This document shows positions 4,299 through 19,568 of a DNA stretch of 64,000 nt, piece after piece. The position numbers were made by a program, and so were the translations under genes. The DNA is taken from positions 28,781 through 92,780 of the forward strand of contig JBNAIG010000018.1 in assembly GCA_050031985.1 (NCBI GenBank). Direction: 5' to 3'. The notes beneath the pieces were generated by a model, which was not told the DNA's origin, ran no database searches, and saw nothing but the letters and a program-made list of their open reading frames with translations. Numbering within the stretch: position 1 is the stretch's first letter; each line of letters opens with the position of its first letter. The DNA comes from Spirochaetaceae bacterium. GTDB taxonomy: Bacteria; Spirochaetota; Spirochaetia; DSM-2461.

Positions 4299-4766
4299 AT
4301 GAAAAGAATTTTTACTCTTGTTTTATTGGCTTCAACCCTGTTCCTCTGGGCCCAGGAAGGGGAGTACGGTACGGCTCCCGGTAAGGGGAAGATCCTGATC
4401 GCCTTTGAGAAAACCCGTTTTAAATCCGCCCTGGTAGAAGGTCTGGTTGAGAAACTGGAAGGAGAAGGGTATTACCTGAACGTGGTAAACCATCAGAAAG
4501 ATGGATTGGAGGGAGTGAATCCCGCCGATTATGACGGGGTTTTTATTACCAACAGTGGTGTGACCGCCAAGGTAAGGCCGGTGGTCTCCGAATGGCTCGC
4601 CGAAAAAGGGCAGCCCGCCCATGTTCTGGTTCACACCACTCAACGGAATGACTGGACTCCCGCCGTGGAGGTGGACAGTATAACTTCCGCTTCTTTTAAA
4701 AAGCAGGATGACATAGACCGGCTGGTCGAAGAGTATGCCGCTTTGATCAAGGGACAGCTTCCTTGA
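4299..4766 (+). CDS. Small secreted protein of unknown function (signal peptide)
   Basis: MKRIFTLVLLASTLFLWAQ signal peptide. A good RBS (aaggagaag) lies 7 nt upstream. The stop overlaps the start of the downstream ferric-reductase-like gene. Confidence 0.5.
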   Translation: MKRIFTLVLLASTLFLWAQEGEYGTAPGKGKILIAFEKTRFKSALVEGLVEKLEGEGYYLNVVNHQKDGLEGVNPADYDGVFITNSGVTAKVRPVVSEWLAEKGQPAHVLVHTTQRNDWTPAVEVDSITSASFKKQDDIDRLVEEYAALIKGQLP

Positions 4767-6034
4767 GGCGTTTTGCCCTCCTCGCCGGGGGAATTCTTTT
4801 TCCCCTGGTACCCCTTCTTTTCTACTTCTACGGGAATTTCTATGATCTGACCGAGCCCTATTCTCTCTCCATGATATTCGGGCTTATTTCCTATGTTTAT
4901 TTCCATGAAGTACTCTTTATTGCCGGCCGGATCTCCTTTCTGGACAGGATCTTTGGGCAGGACCGGGTAATGGTGTACCATCGGTATCTGGTGGCGGCAG
5001 CTCTCGTCACCGCCTTCCTTCACAGGCAGATCAAAATGAGCGTATTTAGTTATTCCAGTGGGCAAATCCTGCTGGGAAGCCTGGCTTTTCTTGTTTTTGG
5101 AACTCTCTCTCTGGCCTCCCTCTTTATGGTTATTCCCAGTAGGCTGGGATTCCTTAAGAAAATCAGTCCCGATTATAATCTGATTAAAGGGCTCCATAAT
5201 CTTTTAGTCCTCGGACTATTCCTTATGTCTCTCCATGTCTTTTTTGCCTCCTCTACCTGGGAAACATCGTCCAGACTGATTCTTGCGATCCTCATTCCCC
5301 TTGTCTCTTTGGGAGCCTGGATAAATCTTAAGTTTGTCCGTCCCCTAAAAGGCTGGCAGAGAGGTCTTGTGGTAGGGGAAAACCGTGGGTTAAATGATTC
5401 CATACGGCAAATAGGCTTTAAGGGAAATCTTCCCTCATTCCGGGCGGGGCAGTTCGGTTTTTTTCGCTTTGTTGACCCGTCCCTGTCCCGGGAAGAGCAT
5501 CCCTTTAGCTTCTCCTCCGCTCCGGAAGAGGTGGGGGGCAGCATTACAGTCAAAGCTCTGGGCAATTATACCCGGTCCCTGGCTGATTTAAAGCCCGGTA
5601 CTCCGGTCGTGCTGGACGGTCCCTACGGCCGGTTCACTTTGGAACCCGATTCGGACAAGCCCTTGATAATGATAGCCGGGGGAATCGGCATAACTCCTTT
5701 TTATTCCCAGTTGAAGAGCGGCGAGTTAAGGAATGATCGGGAAGTACTGCTCATTTGGGCTGTGAAAAGACGGGAAGATTTGGTTTACGATGAAGAATTA
5801 ATCGGCCTTGCCCAAAAGAAGAATCTCACCTACCTCCCCCTCATCCGTCATGAAGAAGGGAAGGAAGTCCCTACAATTACGGCAGAATTCATCAAGAGTC
5901 ATCTGAATCAGCCCCCCCTTAATTATACGGCTTATTTTTGCGGTTCCCCGGTCATGTTCAAATCCTTAAAAAGGGAATGGAAAAAATTGGGGATATTACC
6001 GAGGGACGTCCATTACGAGAAATTTTCTCTTTAA
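4763..6034 (+). CDS. Ferric reductase-like transmembrane domain fused to FAD- and NAD(P)-binding oxidoreductase domains (bacterial NOX/FRE-like)
   Basis: N-terminal multi-TM region with conserved His residues. C-terminal RAGQFGFFRF...HPFSFSS (FAD-binding RxYS-like) and IAGGIGITPF (NAD-binding GGxGxxP) motifs. TTG start overlapping the upstream stop (TTGA). Confidence 0.7.
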   Translation: MRRFALLAGGILFPLVPLLFYFYGNFYDLTEPYSLSMIFGLISYVYFHEVLFIAGRISFLDRIFGQDRVMVYHRYLVAAALVTAFLHRQIKMSVFSYSSGQILLGSLAFLVFGTLSLASLFMVIPSRLGFLKKISPDYNLIKGLHNLLVLGLFLMSLHVFFASSTWETSSRLILAILIPLVSLGAWINLKFVRPLKGWQRGLVVGENRGLNDSIRQIGFKGNLPSFRAGQFGFFRFVDPSLSREEHPFSFSSAPEEVGGSITVKALGNYTRSLADLKPGTPVVLDGPYGRFTLEPDSDKPLIMIAGGIGITPFYSQLKSGELRNDREVLLIWAVKRREDLVYDEELIGLAQKKNLTYLPLIRHEEGKEVPTITAEFIKSHLNQPPLNYTAYFCGSPVMFKSLKREWKKLGILPRDVHYEKFSL

Positions 6035-13520: not shown

Positions 13521-14423
13521 CTAGGGTTTACCTTTGGATGAGTTATCCGATTCCGTTAATTCTATGTCCGGGTAGAGTTCACTTATGCAGTCAGGGCAGA
13601 GCCCATGGGAGAATTGAAGGTCCGAATAGCGGCTCATATAGGTTTCTACCTGGTTCCAGTACCCCTTGTCATCACGGATTCTTTTACAGTGGGAGCAGAT
13701 GGGAAGTATTCCCTGAAGTGTTTTTACCTCATCTAGAGCCTCCTGCATTTTAGTCATGTGAAGGAAATTTTGTCTTCTGACAGATGTGATGTTTTTGTGG
13801 AGGGCAAGAAAGATTATATAGTAGACAATCCCCGGGAGAAAGTAGGAGAAGGGGAGGTGGTTATACAGGTATAATTTCATATATGTGGCCAGAAGAAGGA
13901 GCAGAACGTAGGAGGAGAGAATCAGGTAATGCTTTTGCGAAAGCCAGAGGAAGGTTGATATTGACATAAGGGAAAAAATGTACAAAGCCAATTCTTGGCC
14001 GTAATGGAGGTCCAAATAGGAGAGAGCCATTGACTCGGTATAAAGGATAAGGAGGAAAAGAAAGATATGCCTATTATTTACGGTATTTCTCGCTCCTTTT
14101 ATCCTAAAAAAAATATAGAACAACAGGTTTGTAATGGTTAGGAGAAAAAAAATAAGGATGTAATAGGGGGTAAATTGATCGGCTATGCCGGTTTTGGGCG
14201 AGAAAATATTCTGAAGAATGAAGGCGGGAGATATGGCAGCAAAGAGCACGTTAACAATACGGCAGGTTTTTGTGTTGAACCGGATTCTTTCTTCTTTAAG
14301 AAGGTCTTTATCTTCCGGGTTTAATTGTTTGACTGCATCTTTTGAAAGTGAGAAGCCCATAAAATGATTATAGTTTCTTTGTAAGTAAATGGCCAATATT
14401 TTTTTCTTTCCAATTCCTCCCAT
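13521..14423 (-). CDS. Polytopic membrane protein with a short cytoplasmic coiled coil and a C-terminal 4-Cys (CxxC...CPxC) module; putative sensor or signalling protein
   Basis: About 7 hydrophobic helices, then LQGILPICSHCKRIRDDKGYWNQVETYMSRYSDLQFSHGLCPDCISELYP. The same module is found at the C-terminus of CDS 41374..42795. Last gene of the Tat/flavoprotein operon. Confidence 0.5.
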   Translation of the reverse strand: MGGIGKKKILAIYLQRNYNHFMGFSLSKDAVKQLNPEDKDLLKEERIRFNTKTCRIVNVLFAAISPAFILQNIFSPKTGIADQFTPYYILIFFLLTITNLLFYIFFRIKGARNTVNNRHIFLFLLILYTESMALSYLDLHYGQELALYIFSLMSISTFLWLSQKHYLILSSYVLLLLLATYMKLYLYNHLPFSYFLPGIVYYIIFLALHKNITSVRRQNFLHMTKMQEALDEVKTLQGILPICSHCKRIRDDKGYWNQVETYMSRYSDLQFSHGLCPDCISELYPDIELTESDNSSKGKP

Positions 14424-14466
14424 AGGGGTGAACCGGAAAGAGGTAGGGGCAATTTGTTAGTTTTCT

Positions 14467-15150
14467 TTACTTCTTCTTAAAGGCCCAGGAGAACTTCAAC
14501 GTTCCCTTAACAGGACAAGCGGCAATGCACTCCATACAGTTAATGCATTGGGCATTTCTTACTGCCGGGCGAGTGGAAATCTCTATCTGGGAGGGGCATT
14601 TTATGTCACACTTTTTACAGGAGACGCATTTTTCTTCATCCCGGGTGATGGTGAAAAGCCGGGCCAGACTGAAAACCCCGTAACGGGCTCCTTCGGGGCA
14701 GAAATAACGGCAGAAGGGTCTGTCTATGAAAAGGGAAAGGCCCAGGAAGGTACCAAGAAGAATCCAGGCCGTTTTGCTTATGTAGCTCATATTCTGGTCT
14801 ACGATTCCCATGAAAGAGGCAAAGGGGCTTTGGATCAAAAGAACCAGAGCCAGTCCCAGGAAGGATAGGCCAAAAAGAATATAGCGTAAGAGATTTACCC
14901 ATTTGGCCACTTTGGCAGGGAGCCGGAGCCGGGGGAGGCGAAGGAGACGGCCCAGTTTTCCCAGCCACTCCTGGGCAAAGCCGAAGGGGCAGAGCCATCC
15001 GCAAAACCAGGCTCCTCCCAGTAGAGTGGCACTGAGTAGAATAATCATATAGGCCAGGTTTTTGCTCATATAACCTTTGACGAGCAATACTGCGTAGGCG
15101 ATGGGCGTGAGGGCCCGGACTATCCGATACCATGTGAGTTTTTTTAACAT
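14467..15150 (-). CDS. NapH/MauN-like membrane-bound 4Fe-4S ferredoxin-type protein
   Basis: TM helices with CGWLCPFG and FCRYFCPEG motifs, plus two ferredoxin motifs CVSCKKCDIKCP and CINCMECIAACP. Confidence 0.75.
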   Translation of the reverse strand: MLKKLTWYRIVRALTPIAYAVLLVKGYMSKNLAYMIILLSATLLGGAWFCGWLCPFGFAQEWLGKLGRLLRLPRLRLPAKVAKWVNLLRYILFGLSFLGLALVLLIQSPFASFMGIVDQNMSYISKTAWILLGTFLGLSLFIDRPFCRYFCPEGARYGVFSLARLFTITRDEEKCVSCKKCDIKCPSQIEISTRPAVRNAQCINCMECIAACPVKGTLKFSWAFKKK

Positions 15151-15163
15151 TTTGTGCTCCTGT

Positions 15164-15337
15164 TTAGGCTTTTGTCTCTTCGTCGGCCTGGGCTTTCATA
15201 TCCCGGGCTTCTTTCATTCCCTGGTCGAATTCCTGACGGGCCTTACCTATATTTCGAGCAAATTTGGGGAGAGCCGAGGCTCCAAAGAGGAGAACTACTA
15301 CTCCGCTGATTACCAATACTTCTGTTGTTCCTATCAT
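15164..15337 (-). CDS. tatA: Twin-arginine translocase TatA/E family protein (second paralog, 57 aa)
   Basis: Not in the ORF track (under 60 aa). Translation MIGTTEVLVISGVVVLLFGASALPKFARNIGKARQEFDQGMKEARDMKAQADEETKA has the single TM followed by the FG..LP..R.GKA..EF amphipathic helix signature of TatA. Confidence 0.6.
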   Translation of the reverse strand: MIGTTEVLVISGVVVLLFGASALPKFARNIGKARQEFDQGMKEARDMKAQADEETKA

Positions 15338-15553
15338 CTATTTCTCCTTGTCTTCTTTCTCATCCAGTTCGGTGAGATATTTTACTTCATTTTCAAATTG
15401 ACCGTAAGTCTTTCTTACTCCGTTAATTTCCCGCATAATCGTGGCGTAGACTTTTCCCAGTTTCCTGACGATTCGGGGCATCTCCTTGGGGTTTATCAAA
15501 ACCAGGGCGACTATGACAATGACGATGATTTCCGAGGTTCCCAGTCCGAACAT
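15338..15553 (-). CDS. tatA: Twin-arginine translocase TatA/E family protein
   Basis: MFGLGTSEIIVIVIVALVLINPKEMPRIVRKLGKVYATIMREINGV is a TatA-like N-terminal TM plus amphipathic helix. Overlaps the 3' end of tatC. Confidence 0.7.
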   Translation of the reverse strand: MFGLGTSEIIVIVIVALVLINPKEMPRIVRKLGKVYATIMREINGVRKTYGQFENEVKYLTELDEKEDKEK

Positions 15554-16296
15554 TTGTCTTCTCCAAAGCGGAATATTTTCGCAATAATCAGGGTGAGATA
15601 GTAAAGCACTGTCATGGGCAGGGCCAGACCGATTTGGGTTATGAAATCGGGTGGGGTAAGTAGGGCGGCCACAAGGAAAAACAGCACTATCACATATCGT
15701 CCGAATTTAAAGAGGGCTTTCCTCTTGAGTATATTCATCATAAGAAGGATTTCCAGAACGATGGGCAGCTGGAAAACCAAAAGGGTAAGCAGAATGAACT
15801 GGAGAATATAAAAAATATTCCCGCTAAAGTTTAAAAGCATACCCGTGTTATGGGGAATGAACCCCTGTCCCGTTAAAAATACCACCGAAACGGGAATAAT
15901 GGTGCTGTAGCTATAGAAGAAGCTGCCCAGTACCAGAAGTAGACTGCAAAGCAGGGTAATCAGGAGAATCTGTTTTTCCTTCTTTACCAGCCCGGGAAGT
16001 ACAAAGGAGAGGGTGTTAAAAAGGTGAATGGGGCTGGAGATAATCAGCCCGGCCAGGGCGGAAATCTTGAGCCTTACCAAAAAACCCTCTGCCAGAGTTG
16101 TAATATAGAGGATCTCTCCGTTCTCCGAGGCTGTAAGCCCCTGGAGGGGGACGGAGAGAAACTCTATAATTCTCTCGTAGAAGGGGAGGGCCAGGAAAAA
16201 TCCCAGCCCCAGGGCTACCGCCGATATAATCAGGCAGCGGCGCAACTCCTTCAAATGGGAGAAAATGGGCATGTTCGCTTCGGCGGAACTCATCAT
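15511..16296 (-). CDS. tatC: Twin-arginine translocase subunit TatC
   Basis: 261 aa with 6 TM helices. N-terminal PIFSHLKELRRCLIISAVALGLGFFLALPF matches the TatC N-terminal consensus (hL.ELR.RL). Start abuts the stop of the upstream flavoprotein gene. Confidence 0.85.
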   Translation of the reverse strand: MMSSAEANMPIFSHLKELRRCLIISAVALGLGFFLALPFYERIIEFLSVPLQGLTASENGEILYITTLAEGFLVRLKISALAGLIISSPIHLFNTLSFVLPGLVKKEKQILLITLLCSLLLVLGSFFYSYSTIIPVSVVFLTGQGFIPHNTGMLLNFSGNIFYILQFILLTLLVFQLPIVLEILLMMNILKRKALFKFGRYVIVLFFLVAALLTPPDFITQIGLALPMTVLYYLTLIIAKIFRFGEDKCSDWEPRKSSSLS

Positions 16297-18081
16297 TTAA
16301 ACGGGCCAGCTCCCAAAGGGCTGCTTCTCAAACTGCATTTCCCCGTTCTCGTCCCGGTAAATATTGAGCCAGGCTTCCCAATTGTCGTAGTCTACTTCCG
16401 GGTAGTCCAGACGGTAGTGGGAACAGCGGCTTTCGGTCCGTGTCAGGGAGGCTTTGAGTTTCATCTCCGCATTTACGATCATATGGGCCGTTTCGTGGGC
16501 CAGTCTAAGTTCGTGAAGGTTCGCCGCCTTAAGCATGGGAGTGTGATGGTCCCGCAGCTCTTCCACATAGGCCAAAGCTGCTTTTAAGAGGCTCTCTTTT
16601 TTGATGTAGAGAACAAAGTTGGGAATGATCACGCTCTGGAGTGTCTGGGTTACCCAGGCGGGGCTGTAGCCCGAATCCTGATTGAGGGGGGCCAGTATCT
16701 CCTCTTTTATCTCTTTTATCCGACCGTTGCTGATGTTCTTTTGTGAGACCTTTTTACAGTAGGCTGCCGCCGCTTCCGAGGCTATGGCCCCCTGTACGGC
16801 TGAACCGGTGAGGGAAGAGCCTACCTGGGTATAAATGGTTCCCGCCATATAGGAACCCAGGGCATCTCCCGCAGCATAAAGGCCGGGAATGGTGGATTCG
16901 CAGTTTTCATTAATCGGTACAATCCCTTCGGACTTGTGAATCGCCAGTCCCGCAGAGGCTCCGCCGGAGGAGTTGGCGTTCATGCCGGGCCCGCCCCCTT
17001 CTCCGCCGTCTTTTCCTCCCGGGGGAGGTCCCTGTCTGTTATCATCGCCTCCGGGGGGAGGTCCTTGTCTATTATCGTCACCGCCGGGAGGAGGTCCCAT
17101 GGGACCGTCATCGCCGCCTTTCATGGCGGGCATACCAAAGCCTTCCGGTACATAGGGTCCCCCTTCGGCCATTTCTCCGCCGGGCCCCATCTGTACGGGA
17201 GGTCCGTTCACATAGGCGGTGTAGTTCATATCCACACCCAGGTCGTGATGGATTTCCATACCCGTGGTGGAGGGCTTCATGGCAAACATGCCGTGCCAGC
17301 CGTTGTAGCAGTCGGCGGGATTTTCCATAGAGCCCGAATGGCCGTCGTTCCACTCTTTTCCCGTAATTTTGGCGCCGATTTTATAGGCCATAACAGAACC
17401 GTCATGGGTTAGGTCGCAGATGGGGAATCCGTTGGGCTTGAAGCCCCCCGCTCCGGTACAGAGAACAACAGATTTTGCCTTGAAAATATGAATCTTCTCG
17501 TCGTCATAGCTAAATCCGGCAGCACCTGCGATTCTTCCGTCCTCTTTTATAAGGTGAGTTATCATAACCCGCTCTACCACGGGAATATCTCTTTCGTATA
17601 TGGGTGTGGCGAAGGAGTCGTAGCAGAGGGCCGAGTCAAAGAACCCCCACTCTCTCAGTTCGTCCACCCGGGCTTTGGAGTTTTCCACCATCTGTTTGGT
17701 AAAGACTCTGTTATTGGTATTGATTGCCGAGGCGGCGATCTGGTCCAGGTATTCATCCAGGTCCATTCGGGCCGATTTGGGGTCGTAACTGAACATTCCC
17801 TTGGCAAAAGGAGTTTGTCCGGAAGTCCCCAGGCGGCCTTTCACCACCATGGTGACCTTGGCTCCCGCATCGTGGCCCTTCACTGCTGCGAAAAGTCCCG
17901 CCATGCCTCCGCCGATTACCAGGATATCAGTCTCCTGTTCTTTAACCTTCATGTTGGCCGGGTCGATCTCCCGCTCGTTTTTAGGCAGGTCGAACTTTAC
18001 ACCTGAAGCGGCCAATGCCGCCGCACCAATGACTCCGCCGGAGAGTCCCAGAAATTGACGGCGTGATATATTTGTTCCCAT
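16297..18081 (-). CDS. Tat-signal FAD-dependent oxidoreductase (fumarate reductase/succinate dehydrogenase flavoprotein-like, FAD_binding_2) with an internal Pro/Gly-rich tandem-repeat insertion
   Basis: Twin-arginine signal MGTNISRRQFLGLSGGVIGAAALAASG. Dinucleotide-binding fold DILVIGGGMAGLFAAVKG. C-terminal region resembles the flavoprotein-subunit C-terminus. Insertion PMGPPPGGDDNRQGPPPGGDDNRQGPPPGG. Confidence 0.8.
   Translation of the reverse strand: MGTNISRRQFLGLSGGVIGAAALAASGVKFDLPKNEREIDPANMKVKEQETDILVIGGGMAGLFAAVKGHDAGAKVTMVVKGRLGTSGQTPFAKGMFSYDPKSARMDLDEYLDQIAASAINTNNRVFTKQMVENSKARVDELREWGFFDSALCYDSFATPIYERDIPVVERVMITHLIKEDGRIAGAAGFSYDDEKIHIFKAKSVVLCTGAGGFKPNGFPICDLTHDGSVMAYKIGAKITGKEWNDGHSGSMENPADCYNGWHGMFAMKPSTTGMEIHHDLGVDMNYTAYVNGPPVQMGPGGEMAEGGPYVPEGFGMPAMKGGDDGPMGPPPGGDDNRQGPPPGGDDNRQGPPPGGKDGGEGGGPGMNANSSGGASAGLAIHKSEGIVPINENCESTIPGLYAAGDALGSYMAGTIYTQVGSSLTGSAVQGAIASEAAAAYCKKVSQKNISNGRIKEIKEEILAPLNQDSGYSPAWVTQTLQSVIIPNFVLYIKKESLLKAALAYVEELRDHHTPMLKAANLHELRLAHETAHMIVNAEMKLKASLTRTESRCSHYRLDYPEVDYDNWEAWLNIYRDENGEMQFEKQPFGSWPV
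17021..17118. repeat. Imperfect 33-nt tandem repeat (about 3 copies) inside the flavoprotein gene
   Basis: gggggaggtccctgtctgttatcatcgcctcc / ggggggaggtccttgtctattatcgtcaccgcc / gggaggaggtcccatgggaccgtcatcgccgcc. Encodes (GPPPGGDDNRQ)n. Confidence 0.7.
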
Positions 18082-18093
18082 TCTAATCTCCTC

Positions 18094-18306
18094 CTAGCCC
18101 CAGGATACCACTACGGGTATCGATTTATCCGGTGAAATGGTAATAGCGTCCACCGGGCAGTAGAGCCGGCAGAGGTGACAGATTTGACAGTCCTCGGGGT
18201 AGGCGATGTAGGCCTTACCGTTAGGCTTGAGTTGTATCACATCGGTGGGGCAGGTTAGTTTACAGGTCCCGCAGCCAATGCAGCCGTAAATACTTTTAAT
18301 AGCCAT
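18094..18306 (-). CDS. 2x[4Fe-4S] ferredoxin (70 aa)
   Basis: CIGCGTCKLTCP and CQICHLCRLYCP cluster motifs. No signal peptide. First gene of the operon, 12 nt upstream of the Tat-flavoprotein gene. Confidence 0.8.
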   Translation of the reverse strand: MAIKSIYGCIGCGTCKLTCPTDVIQLKPNGKAYIAYPEDCQICHLCRLYCPVDAITISPDKSIPVVVSWG

Positions 18307-18458
18307 AGAAGCTCCTTCTTATACCACAAGTATAGTTGAAAGAGGGGATATGTGAACAAGCAGAAGTGAATATTATGTCAACTTAAGGTTGTCCATTCCG
18401 TCTTTCCTCCGTCAGGATGCCCCCATTATGCCTATTCGGAAAATCTATTCGTCTTAAT

Positions 18459-19568
18459 TTATAAAGTTGAACGAATTTCCCGGGAAATTTGGGAGGGGGT
18501 TTTGTTAAATTCTTTTTTGACCGCCCCATTAAATGTTGCCTTTGAGTTAAACCCGCATTCATGGGCTATGGCAAGAAAGGTAAAATCGGGGAAACGGTTT
18601 TCCTTTAGGCACGCTTTGAATTCCCGTGCCCTGTATCCATTGATGAAATGAAAGAAATTTTCTCCTGTTTCGTTGTTTATCAGTCGGGAGAGATCATTTC
18701 TTCCTATACCCGTTTCATCGGAGAGCTTCTGCAGGGAGAGGTTATTGTCCAAATAGATGCGGCTGTTGTTCATAAAACGGTCGAGCTCGTTGAATTTTCC
18801 GCCGCCGGAGCTTTTTACTTTTTTCAAGTCCGAAGGGGTGGGGGCTTTTGTCATCAGAAGCTCCGGTTTTTGCCTTTCCTGAAACTGGGCCAAAAGAGTA
18901 AAAAGGAAAAGAAAAATCAATACGGCCAGGGCGTGTAGTATATCAATAAATTCCGGGTCACCCAGGAATCTCTGCACCCGGGGAGGGCGGGAAGGGGCCA
19001 GATGGAAGAAAATCGTTACCGTCAGAGCCACCGTTACAGTGATTAGCATGAGAGCTGCTGCCATATAGCTCAGCCATCTGATCTCTTTGAATGTATCTCT
19101 GTAGGAAAGCTGGTTCTTTAACCTTTGGCCGTAACGGGAGAGGGAGATAAAAATCAACGTACTATAGCTCAAAAGAGAAAGCAGATTTGTCTGCCCGTAA
19201 ATCTTGGGAAGCCCCGGGAGCTGTATTTGTCTGCCGATGGTGAATTGAAACAGTATCCACCAGATGAGAAAGGGAAGGAGGTGGAGCCCGTCTTTTATCT
19301 GCCCCTTCCGTCCCATACAGGCTCGGGCATATAAGTAAAGAGTTGGCCCCAGCAGTAACACCCAGTGCCTTGTGGGAAGTTTTTCCAGGAACAGGCTTTG
19401 TTCTTCACCTACATGATTTTGAATGAGAGAAGGGATTTGGGAGAGGGCCAGGATGATTATTATGGCCATAAGATACTTCCGTGACAGGGTTTTCCGATTC
19501 ATAGAAAGGACCTGGAGTAAGGAATAAAGCGATAGGGTGACAATTGAGGTGACAAGGGCGCCGTGCAT
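18459..19568 (-). CDS. Membrane-anchored AraC family transcriptional regulator (multi-TM N-terminal domain with C-terminal HTH)
   Basis: About 6 TM helices in the N-terminal 230 aa. C-terminal LQKLSDETGIGRNDLSRLINNETGENFFHFINGYRAREFKACL...LAIAHECGFNSKATFNGAVKKEFNKTPSQ is an AraC HTH. Confidence 0.75.
   Translation of the reverse strand: MHGALVTSIVTLSLYSLLQVLSMNRKTLSRKYLMAIIIILALSQIPSLIQNHVGEEQSLFLEKLPTRHWVLLLGPTLYLYARACMGRKGQIKDGLHLLPFLIWWILFQFTIGRQIQLPGLPKIYGQTNLLSLLSYSTLIFISLSRYGQRLKNQLSYRDTFKEIRWLSYMAAALMLITVTVALTVTIFFHLAPSRPPRVQRFLGDPEFIDILHALAVLIFLFLFTLLAQFQERQKPELLMTKAPTPSDLKKVKSSGGGKFNELDRFMNNSRIYLDNNLSLQKLSDETGIGRNDLSRLINNETGENFFHFINGYRAREFKACLKENRFPDFTFLAIAHECGFNSKATFNGAVKKEFNKTPSQISREIRSTL

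Follow-up and report, generated by a model that had tools for sequence, protein, structure and literature searches.

A putative self-contained tat-linked cassette for an extracytoplasmic ferredoxin-flavoprotein redox enzyme in a spirochaete

The six-gene unit and its tat genes

This report concerns a compact set of genes for a ferredoxin, a flavoprotein, parts of the machinery for twin-arginine translocation (Tat) and an iron-sulfur membrane protein, found in a 64,000-nucleotide (nt) stretch of DNA from a Spirochaetaceae bacterium (assembly GCA_050031985.1, contig JBNAIG010000018.1, positions 28,781 to 92,780), which we call the window. An earlier note on this DNA, made from its letters alone, had described seven minus-strand genes between positions 13521 and 18306, packed with gaps of 0-13 nt. 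All seven co-directional open reading frames (ORFs) do exist where it placed them, according to the ORF listing of the window, but the tight unit consists of six, running from 18306 to 14467 (-) in the order ferredoxin, flavoprotein, tatC, tatB-like gene, tatA and napH-like gene. The junctions on the coding strand, from the ferredoxin gene to the seventh gene, measure 12, 0, -43, 0, 13 and 43 nt, the last figure being the distance that sets the seventh gene apart. The annotation of the six proteins in the source metagenome-assembled genome (MAG) is generic: ferredoxin family, flavin adenine dinucleotide (FAD)-binding protein, TatC, 4Fe-4S binding and, twice, TatA/TatE family subunit.

The unit opens with the gene for a ferredoxin of 70 amino acids (aa) and two [4Fe-4S] clusters (18094..18306, -), an identification that its matches to Fer4_21 and Fer4_7 uphold. 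It is followed by the gene for the 594-aa FAD flavoprotein (16297..18081, -), in which the generic domains PF00890 and PF02910 (FAD_binding_2 and Succ_DH_flav_C) are the only ones to pass their thresholds, and it ends with the gene for a 227-aa NapH-like membrane Fe-S protein (14467..15150, -; Fer4_5, E 8e-15).

Between these lie the tat genes. The start codon of tatC (15511..16296, -) begins at the base right after the flavoprotein stop codon, just as the note had it. The TatC protein has six hydrophobic segments, scores 155.8 bits with PF00902 (gathering score 25.1) and is 100% identical to P0121, a protein annotated as TatC in a Spirochaetales MAG; with TIGR00945 it reaches 129.9 against a cut-off of 132.7, which is marginally under. 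The next two genes had been taken for tandem tatA paralogs. Both products are indeed members of the TatA_B_E family, but the 71-aa one (15338..15553, -), which scores 24.6 bits with PF02416 (gathering score 21), is TatB-like: of the NCBIfam models TIGR01410 tatB fits it best (45.3 bits, cut-off 56.5), its N-terminus reads MFGLGTSE as in TatB, including Glu8, and its hinge is NP. Its gene and tatC form the -43 nt junction, that is, they overlap, and the same overlap of 43 nt is present in two of the related loci described below, L010 and L011. The existence of the 57-aa tatA ORF (15164..15337, -) can be affirmed: it matches PF02416 with 45.7 bits (gathering score 21; E 3.8e-12), carries an LLFG sequence at its FG hinge, reaches 51.2 against a cut-off of 53.9 with TIGR01411 tatAE, and is annotated as a TatA/TatE family subunit in the source MAG. 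The tatA start codon begins at the base directly after the tatB stop codon. Identity to the window in the syntenic loci is 78-96% for TatA and, in L004, L008 and L010-L012, 61-82% for TatC. In our opinion the sequences point to a three-component set in the order tatC-tatB-tatA, not to two TatA copies.

The flavoprotein, its export signal and its ferredoxin

For comparison we used 98 further loci, obtained by exact-protein look-ups and one metagenome scan and compared by tblastn and ORF clustering. The metagenome loci come without taxonomy, and statements about taxa rest on the named members. At E<=1e-10 a search finds 1502 homologues of the flavoprotein, and identity to it is 61-79% for the 120 best. 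Named taxa among these best 120 include Spirochaetes, Thiothrix, Omnitrophica, Bacteroidota (Labilibaculum, Marinifilum, Draconibacterium, Lutibacter, Maribacter) and Desulfobacterota (Desulfobacter, Desulfuromusa, Desulforhopalus), and many named homologues come from marine or sediment anaerobes. Judged by these identities, the conservation of the flavoprotein across phyla is unusually high.

The family to which the enzyme belongs can be described more easily than its reaction. The note had proposed a profile search against the subfamilies of FAD_binding_2, and that search yielded no subfamily: all 25 NCBIfam subfamilies listed, among them fumarate reductase, succinate dehydrogenase, TfrA, AprA, NadB, MFR and TcuA, score three- to twenty-fold under their cut-offs. 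The best are NF006131 (161.9 against 587) and TIGR01812 (103.4 against 567.3); the equivalog models for AprA (TIGR02061, 85.5 against 641.75) and MFR, the family of MfrA (NF042982, 50.3 against 1100), are missed by a wide distance. Because every curated cut-off is missed, we assign no substrate. Identity as a fumarate, urocanate, methacrylate or APS (adenosine phosphosulfate) reductase was considered and rejected, given the subfamily scores far under the cut-offs and a distinct capping domain.

The top matches in a PDB profile search are AprA (1jnr, E 1e-30), the SdhA of mycobacterial Sdh1 and the alpha subunit of an archaeal PAPS (phosphoadenosine phosphosulfate) reductase (8a8o), aligned at residues ~46-217 and 383-586. 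The capping domain between these blocks (residues ~218-382) gave no alignment by sequence to any solved relative in that search, and an alignment of 31 orthologues contains no invariant Arg at positions 226-373 of this domain. The ESRxxH motif of the Sdh/Frd active site (R552, H555) and H382 are retained, but the proton-donor Arg and the dicarboxylate-binding residues that mark the capping domain of FrdA and SdhA are not found. An AlphaFold2 model has a predicted local distance difference test score (pLDDT) of 89.8 and a predicted template-modelling score of 0.89, the loop at residues 321-367 excepted; its input was an alignment of 104 sequences including distant representatives, the 31 close orthologues alone having given a pLDDT of 54. 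The fold is closest to the alpha subunits of PAPS/APS reductase and succinate dehydrogenase. Taken with the profile scores, this places the enzyme by its sequence in the Sdh/Frd/Apr superfamily and in none of the characterised subfamilies.

The excepted loop (16981..17121, -) is Gly/Pro-rich and predicted to be disordered (pLDDT <50). It contains a 33-nt tandem duplication that encodes GGDDNRQGPPP twice (Tandem Repeats Finder: period 33, 2.5 copies, 17015-17098), and it is present in all orthologues with variable sequence and length. Its RQGPPPGG repeats resemble the GPPP/GPPKPP motifs of two protein families encoded beside the module in other phyla, small secreted proteins of 96 aa and LTXXQ proteins (L090, L052 and other loci of the MsrQ type described below). 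The G+C content at 16001-18000, the region of the flavoprotein gene, is 0.544 as against 0.45-0.48 in the flanking 2-kb bins; the Gly/Pro-rich loop explains part of this rise, and a foreign origin may contribute as well.

The note had further held that the flavoprotein is a Tat cargo on account of its twin-arginine (RR) signal, and the wider comparison bears this out. The signal peptide, predicted at residues 1 to ~27 (MGTNISRRQFLGLSGGVIGAAALAASG; 18001..18081, -), matches TAT_signal and contains ISRRQFLGL followed by SGGVIGAAALAASG. R7, R8 and F10 are invariant in all 31 aligned orthologues, from several phyla, with a hydrophobic Ala/Gly-rich stretch downstream. The strict pattern [STNDGK]RRxF[LIM] is matched in 82 of the 91 orthologous loci; the other nine comprise six with RR near-variants (RRQFF, RRKFV, RRQFT, HRRHFL), one with SGRQF, and two whose ORFs are over-extended upstream, so that inspection did not take in the motif region. 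Many paralogues have no such N-terminal extension (~45 residues) at all: the surrounding clade comprises 298 representatives at E<1e-30, many of them without the extension and the RR motif. The existence of these paralogues marks the signal as a selected feature. Among the proteins of the 64-kb window we see no other Tat-like signal peptide, the remaining matches to the pattern being N-termini of membrane proteins or lying deep in the sequence.

It could still be supposed that the flavoprotein is a cytoplasmic enzyme with an accidental RR, as the note itself had allowed, and that its tat neighbours are unrelated. The Pfam TAT_signal match (E 7.5e-4, 19.8 bits) indeed falls under the gathering score of 22.7. 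Yet an accident would have to account for an invariant motif in several phyla, for its presence in essentially all of the 91 orthologues, for the absence of the entire extension in the signal-less relatives, and for the translational coupling, in seven loci, of tat genes to that of the flavoprotein. Because the motif is conserved and tatC is coupled in this way, we regard such an accident as extremely improbable, and on sequence grounds we consider the flavoprotein a genuine Tat cargo. The canonical RR motif of the cassette is common to its orthologues in other phyla, unlike the RKxFL motif used in Leptospira, the spirochaete whose Tat system has been studied (PMC4758666), and would be compatible with a joint acquisition of enzyme and translocase.

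The ferredoxin is even more conserved than the flavoprotein (69-88% identity across phyla as against 62-79%). It is 70-71 aa long in 76 of 82 hits and ends in a tail with the consensus IpV.VSWG, in which V-S-W-G is present in at least 90% of the sequences. High conservation and a conserved tail are typical of a tightly bound subunit. No in-frame start codon is available upstream of the ferredoxin before a stop in 64 loci, which excludes a signal peptide. Among small subunits in the PDB the ferredoxin best matches PAPS-reductase beta (8a8o_C, E 8e-8), which comes from the same enzyme whose alpha subunit is the best fold match of the flavoprotein. P0257, which shares 45% identity with the window flavoprotein, and P0416 are paralogues without a signal, and each adjoins a gene for a 73-74-aa 2x[4Fe-4S] ferredoxin that is 49% identical to that of the window, and the neighbourhood check found no MsrQ-like, NapH-like or tat gene near either of them. 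A third signal-less paralogue, P0252, lies 42 nt from a contig end, where its upstream context is missing. Ten longer paralogues of the flavoprotein (648-717 aa) were checked for fusions to a ferredoxin, and no Fer4 domain was found in them. Ferredoxin and flavoprotein are thus inherited together whatever the compartment, and the ferredoxin follows the flavoprotein rather than the membrane module.

Since the signal-less paralogues keep the ferredoxin without a membrane partner, we think that it is most likely the flavoprotein's own AprB-like beta subunit, carried through the Tat system as a hitchhiker. The note had offered co-export as a candidate explanation, and it is now the better-supported one, in view of the missing room for a signal peptide, the match to the beta subunit of PAPS reductase and the ferredoxins kept beside signal-less paralogues. 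It is also the most economical, because the cytoplasm is where Fe-S clusters are inserted, and the alpha subunit is already folded when it passes through Tat. Hitchhiking of signal-less Fe-S subunits is established for hydrogenases and formate dehydrogenases (PMC10924467), and MfrABE is exported by Tat with a signal only on its flavoprotein MfrA (PMC3996566).

Recurrence of the gene order and exchange of the presumed membrane partner

The earlier note overlooked what is in our view most important, namely that the locus represents a derived form within a much larger family, in which the basic gene order is ferredoxin, MsrQ-like protein, flavoprotein. An MsrQ-like protein (PF01794 Ferric_reduct, ~210 aa) is encoded in ~70 of the 91 orthologous loci, most of the others being truncated contigs. 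It has two His pairs spaced 14 residues apart and conserved in at least 95% of 70 sequences, which is a bis-haem pattern. The window has a Tat flavoprotein more than 60% identical to those of the family and a VSWG-tailed ferredoxin, and no MsrQ-like gene. As that gene is replaced by the NapH-like gene downstream of tatA, we treat the window as a variant of the module. Literature searches on the module, on its Pfam pairs and on the spirochaete Tat system returned no published characterisation of it.

The genes tatC-tatB-tatA follow the flavoprotein gene directly in seven loci only, namely the window, L004 (Oceanispirochaeta crateris), L008 (Pleomorphochaeta), L010, L011, L012 and L093; no tat genes were seen within ~4 kb of the flavoprotein gene in the loci of other phyla. 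The synteny search that the note had suggested, for ferredoxin, Tat flavoprotein, tatCA and napH, was successful: the full order ferredoxin-flavoprotein-tatC-tatB-tatA-napH recurs in four further loci (L004, L010, L011, L012). The order in L008 and L093 is ferredoxin-MsrQ-flavoprotein-tatC-tatB-tatA. Full-length flavoprotein identity to the window is 70-79% in L004, L008 and L010-L012 (the comparison did not extend to L093; the flavoprotein of L010/L011 is P0001). With its order recurring in six other loci, the arrangement is not due to chance. A simple neighbour-joining tree of the flavoproteins, of low resolution inside the tat-linked clade, groups the seven tat-linked loci as one clade nested among MsrQ-type loci. 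This suggests that the tat genes were added once, in a clade whose named members are spirochaetes, and that the membrane partner was swapped afterwards.

The NapH-like protein has four predicted transmembrane (TM) helices, CX3CP at residues 50-55 and 147-152, two CxxCxxCxxxCP motifs and a C-terminal 2x[4Fe-4S] domain. Its description as NapH/MauN-type in the note holds for the architecture (Fer4_5, CX3CP and 4Fe-4S) but not for family membership, since it scores only 83.9 against 213.05 with TIGR02163 NapH/MauN and 77.8 against 234 with PRK09477. No nap or mau genes occur among the neighbouring genes that were scanned (~4.3-25 kb of the window, the rest being listed as ORFs only). The predicted topology agrees with that accepted for NapH. 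A homologue with 63-73% identity occupies the same position in L004 and L012. By tblastn and ORF clustering, the MsrQ-like gene is absent from the window, L004 and L010-L012, that is, from every locus of the NapH type. This is a non-orthologous displacement of MsrQ-like by NapH-like, and it is the strongest indication we have that the enzyme's electron link is the NapH-like protein, as the note had assumed. Proteins of both kinds have been described as interchangeable transmembrane electron-transfer modules for extracytosolic enzymes (PMC8238504). Entry into the catalogue of Meheust et al. 2021 depended on an FMN_bind or ApbE gene (PMC8238504), and Pfam finds no match to either in the seven proteins of the cluster or in the Pfam listings of L004-L012.

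From these data we arrive at a reading that we consider rather probable, in which the genes from 18306 to 14467 (-) form a self-contained unit for an extracytoplasmic redox enzyme. The flavoprotein (alpha) and the ferredoxin (beta) would receive their cofactors and assemble in the cytoplasm as a heterodimer similar to AprAB or to the SdhAB head. The folded complex would then be exported by the co-encoded TatC-TatB-TatA, with the signal on alpha and beta hitchhiking. In the periplasm the ferredoxin would relay electrons between the FAD and a membrane partner, NapH-like here and MsrQ-like in most relatives, which would connect the enzyme to quinol or to a cytoplasmic electron pool. The FAD site would reduce, or less likely oxidise, a small substrate in the periplasm other than fumarate or APS. 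The AraC-type membrane regulator encoded upstream, to which we return, would induce the operon. Gene content and order, conservation, the family and fold assignments, the conserved Tat motif and the joint inheritance of ferredoxin and flavoprotein are observed; the complex, its co-export, the path and direction of the electrons and the regulation are inferred.

Several observations speak against this reading. In the NapH-like protein both CX3CP motifs, as well as the cluster domain, lie in K/R-rich segments, which are cytoplasmic by the positive-inside rule, and its sole sizeable periplasmic loop, between TM3 and TM4, has 17 residues and no positive charge; the model leaves a gap between cytoplasmic clusters and a periplasmic ferredoxin, one that it shares with NapGH and with NapH-type proteins in general. 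The two nearest relatives have a napH-like gene interrupted by a frameshift at one and the same position (L010 12957-13585, L011 4615-5291), with part of the second 4Fe-4S motif missing as well in L010; the gene may be dispensable or a pseudogene there, or there may be an assembly error. To these must be added the TAT_signal score given above and the TIGR scores of tatA, tatB and tatC, which are all at or just under the curated cut-offs. As for the quinol oxidation that the note had ascribed to the NapH-like protein, it is an overstated analogy, the protein being far under the NapH cut-offs and its Fe-S motifs being all predicted as cytoplasmic.

The same topology invites a different assignment of roles. 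The ferredoxin might stay inside and feed the NapH-like protein at its cytoplasmic Fe-S domain, or the MsrQ-like protein of relatives at its inner haem, from where electrons would cross the membrane to a flavoprotein acting alone in the periplasm; the electrons would come from a low-potential source such as pyruvate:ferredoxin oxidoreductase in a fermenting spirochaete. Such an arrangement agrees with the cytoplasmic prediction for all Fe-S motifs of the NapH-like protein and with the absence of a ferredoxin signal peptide in any of 82 loci. In Ferric_reduct-type proteins the electron donor is typically cytoplasmic and the acceptor outside, and the order ferredoxin-MsrQ-flavoprotein puts the ferredoxin beside the membrane protein in most loci. 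Transmembrane transfer through NapH-like clusters has also been proposed (PMC8238504). However, the signal-less paralogues keep a similar ferredoxin although no membrane protein is there to receive its electrons. Flavoprotein and ferredoxin also have their best structural relatives in a single enzyme, as its alpha and its beta subunit, and the very high conservation of the ferredoxin, tail included, is more in line with a fixed subunit than with a diffusible carrier. Flavoproteins of the Sdh/Frd/Apr fold, with the exception of L-aspartate oxidase, obtain their electrons through a bound Fe-S subunit; those of Sdh, Frd and Apr are fed in this way. We consider a ferredoxin that stays in the cytoplasm unlikely.

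Another question is whether the translocase serves this enzyme in particular, as the note had suggested. The presence of tat genes in the operon of a substrate had been called unusual in the note, which the literature shows to be overstated: Tat components stand beside a cargo gene in phoD-tatAdCd of B. subtilis (PMC3827258), and tatA2 of C. jejuni is part of the nap operon (PMC4148689). The tatCBA genes might be the organism's only, housekeeping Tat system, with several substrates, and might adjoin its most prominent cargo simply by co-inheritance. The set looks complete and ordinary, the C. jejuni tatA2 serves other cargo in spite of its position (PMC4148689), and the Tat system of Leptospira handles 11 substrate families (PMC4758666). 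Distant members of the TatC clade, moreover, stand alone or adjoin unrelated genes (L013, L014). On the other hand, in each of the seven clade members the flavoprotein gene is immediately followed by the tat genes, at a distance of 0-24 nt or slightly overlapping (as in L004), and this with either membrane partner. The window, moreover, holds no second Tat-like signal, though other substrates may be encoded elsewhere in the genome. A general-purpose Tat system is in our judgement quite possible, if slightly short of probable.

The two distant loci deserve a short description of their own. Their TatC proteins show 41-49% identity, and no linkage to the flavoprotein exists in either. L013 (8001-9897) has tatC-tatA followed by a gene for a GFO_IDH_MocA oxidoreductase, whose product we considered as a tat-linked cargo and rejected, as it has no signal peptide. 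L014 (8001-9123, Margulisiibacteriota) has tatC-tatB-tatA standing alone beside suf genes.

A further membrane oxidoreductase is encoded in the window. A secreted protein of 155 aa (4299-4766, +) is translationally coupled to a NOX-like membrane protein of 423 aa (4763-6034, +), which has weak matches to Ferric_reduct, FAD_binding_8 and NAD_binding_1. This gene pair directly adjoins the cassette in L010 and L011, the loci in which napH is frameshifted. The NOX-like protein was considered as a relocated MsrQ-like partner and rejected, the similarity of the TM domains being meaningless (E 0.04).

Neighbouring genes, known systems and what the cassette may mean

Upstream of the ferredoxin gene, across a gap of 152 nt, is a gene for an AraC-type protein (18459..19568, -) with a C-terminal HTH_18 domain (Pfam E 1.1e-13), a probable regulator. 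Its N-terminal hydrophobic segments number five to six, and hydropathy gives five strongly hydrophobic ones in residues 1-226. In L010 and L011 the ferredoxin gene is directly preceded by the gene for a homologue with 60% identity, another with 27% identity is downstream of tatA in L008, and one more is found in L093. The gap contains a promoter-like site, TTCACA-16 nt-TATACT (18329..18356, -), which matches the consensus at 10/12 positions and ties for the best match in the scanned region. The packing of the genes and their ribosome-binding sites fit one transcript from this site, and the AraC-type membrane protein probably induces the operon.

An aldehyde dehydrogenase gene (PF00171; 19577-20956, -) ends 8 nt before the AraC-type gene. 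The signal-less paralogue of L096 likewise has such a gene ~1 kb upstream. L010 and L011 have none, and the linkage is for this reason probably a coincidence.

At the other end, the seventh gene (13521..14423, -), which the note had counted as an operon member with a Cys-module sensor product, has to be removed from the operon: it is 43 nt away and absent from all six syntenic loci. It encodes a protein of 300 aa with five hydrophobic segments and a C-terminal four-Cys module of the CxxC...CxxC type (LPICSHCKRIRDDKGYWNQVETYMSRYSDLQFSHGLCPDC), for which neither Pfam nor NCBIfam has a match. No ribosome-binding site is visible at the gene, and a promoter-like site lies within the 5' end of the ORF. 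This suggests that the true start is further downstream, perhaps at Met22. The exact sequence of the protein is not in the source annotation, which a different start call could explain.

The surroundings of the MsrQ-type loci have a character of their own. An LTXXQ (Spy/CpxP-like) gene is found in 22 loci, a small secreted protein with Gly/Pro motifs in 18, an OmpR-type response regulator with a histidine kinase in 17 (best match BaeR, 296.9 against 380) and DUF1566/Lcl_C proteins in 16, together with MarR (6 loci) or LytS/LytTR regulators. None of these stress-type neighbours occurs in the window or in the other NapH-type loci, where the AraC-type membrane regulator is found instead. A different set of neighbours, VTC-domain, DUF4956, DUF2490 and CotH, recurs beside the module, for example in L002 (Lutibacter), L005 (Labilibaculum), L026, L038, L039, L056 and L070.

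Given these stress-type neighbours and the MsrQ-type membrane partner, the enzyme might be a periplasmic reductase for detoxification or repair, following the logic of MsrPQ and induced by envelope stress or a toxic compound. The regulators, of diverse inducible types (AraC in the window), are in keeping with such a role. Yet the window and the other NapH-type loci have none of these neighbours, the co-location of a two-component system does not identify its signal, and respiratory reductases are also often under substrate-sensing regulators. A protective role therefore seems to us possible but somewhat doubtful; nonetheless, taking the MsrQ-type neighbours and partner together, it is a serious alternative to energy-conserving respiration.

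Of the systems already known, the cassette resembles MfrABE of Campylobacter and Wolinella most closely in its presumed way of working. MfrA is likewise a flavoprotein of the Sdh/Frd superfamily with a twin-arginine signal (SRRDFIK) (PMC3996566, PMC4148689); there, too, an Fe-S subunit is present, the Tat signal is reported on the flavoprotein, the complex is described as reaching the periplasm in the folded state, and a membrane subunit makes the link to quinol. The two differ in several ways. The MFR score is low and the capping domain is not alignable; the Fe-S subunit of MfrABE is a three-cluster protein of the SdhB type, whereas here it is the 70-aa two-cluster ferredoxin; the membrane partner is MfrE there and NapH-like here (MsrQ-like in relatives), no MfrE-like gene being seen in the operon by ORF listing or Pfam; and only here are tat genes inside the operon.

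In structure, the soluble part is most like AprAB and archaeal PAPS reductase (1jnr, 8a8o). These are cytoplasmic enzymes with nucleotide substrates, without a Tat signal or membrane partners of this kind; identity to them is ~20-23%, and their beta subunits are longer (104 aa in 8a8o_C). With MsrPQ (YedYZ) the family shares, in ~70 orthologous loci, an MsrQ-like bis-haem Ferric_reduct partner that would feed a Tat-exported periplasmic reductase, and stress-type two-component regulators often adjoin the MsrQ-type loci. But MsrP is a molybdoenzyme, whereas the enzyme here is an FAD flavoprotein with a ferredoxin, and the operon in the window has no MsrQ-like gene.

With NapGH and the NapH-like flavinylation systems (PMC8238504) the cassette shares the Fer4_5 CX3CP motifs, the C-terminal 2x[4Fe-4S] domain and an extracytoplasmic enzyme as partner, and its small ferredoxin could act in the role of NapG. 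There is, however, no napA, napB or napG here, NapG has four clusters and a Tat signal of its own, and an operon without FMN_bind or ApbE falls outside that catalogue. Like phoD-tatAdCd and the tatA2 of the nap operon (PMC3827258, PMC4148689), the cassette has Tat components in or beside the operon of a Tat cargo; unlike them, it has a seemingly complete tatC-tatB-tatA coupled downstream of a two-subunit, cofactor-containing cargo, in loci whose named members are spirochaetes. Tested against MfrABE, AprAB, MsrPQ and NapGH, the cassette thus belongs to none of them.

The family deserves more attention than its annotation, which reads only 'FAD-binding protein', would suggest, since it is highly conserved across at least five phyla. 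A flavoenzyme conserved to this degree probably handles a common environmental compound or stress, and identifying its substrate could extend the known respiratory or protective reactions by a further one. The swap of MsrQ-like and NapH-like proteins around one enzyme offers a clean comparative case for outward electron delivery, and the compact six-gene spirochaete unit a movable model for Tat specificity, for hitchhiking of a mini-ferredoxin and for the assembly of a minimal periplasmic Fe-S flavoenzyme.

We would add a bolder proposal, which we put forward tentatively and rate as rather unlikely. The cassette may be autonomous in export, with a TatCBA that serves essentially one two-subunit cargo and an exchangeable membrane module, and this autonomy may have enabled its horizontal acquisition by a spirochaete lineage otherwise without a canonical RR-type Tat system. 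If this is true, the cassette would stand for a novel kind of extracytoplasmic oxidoreductase, linked to quinol or to ferredoxin.

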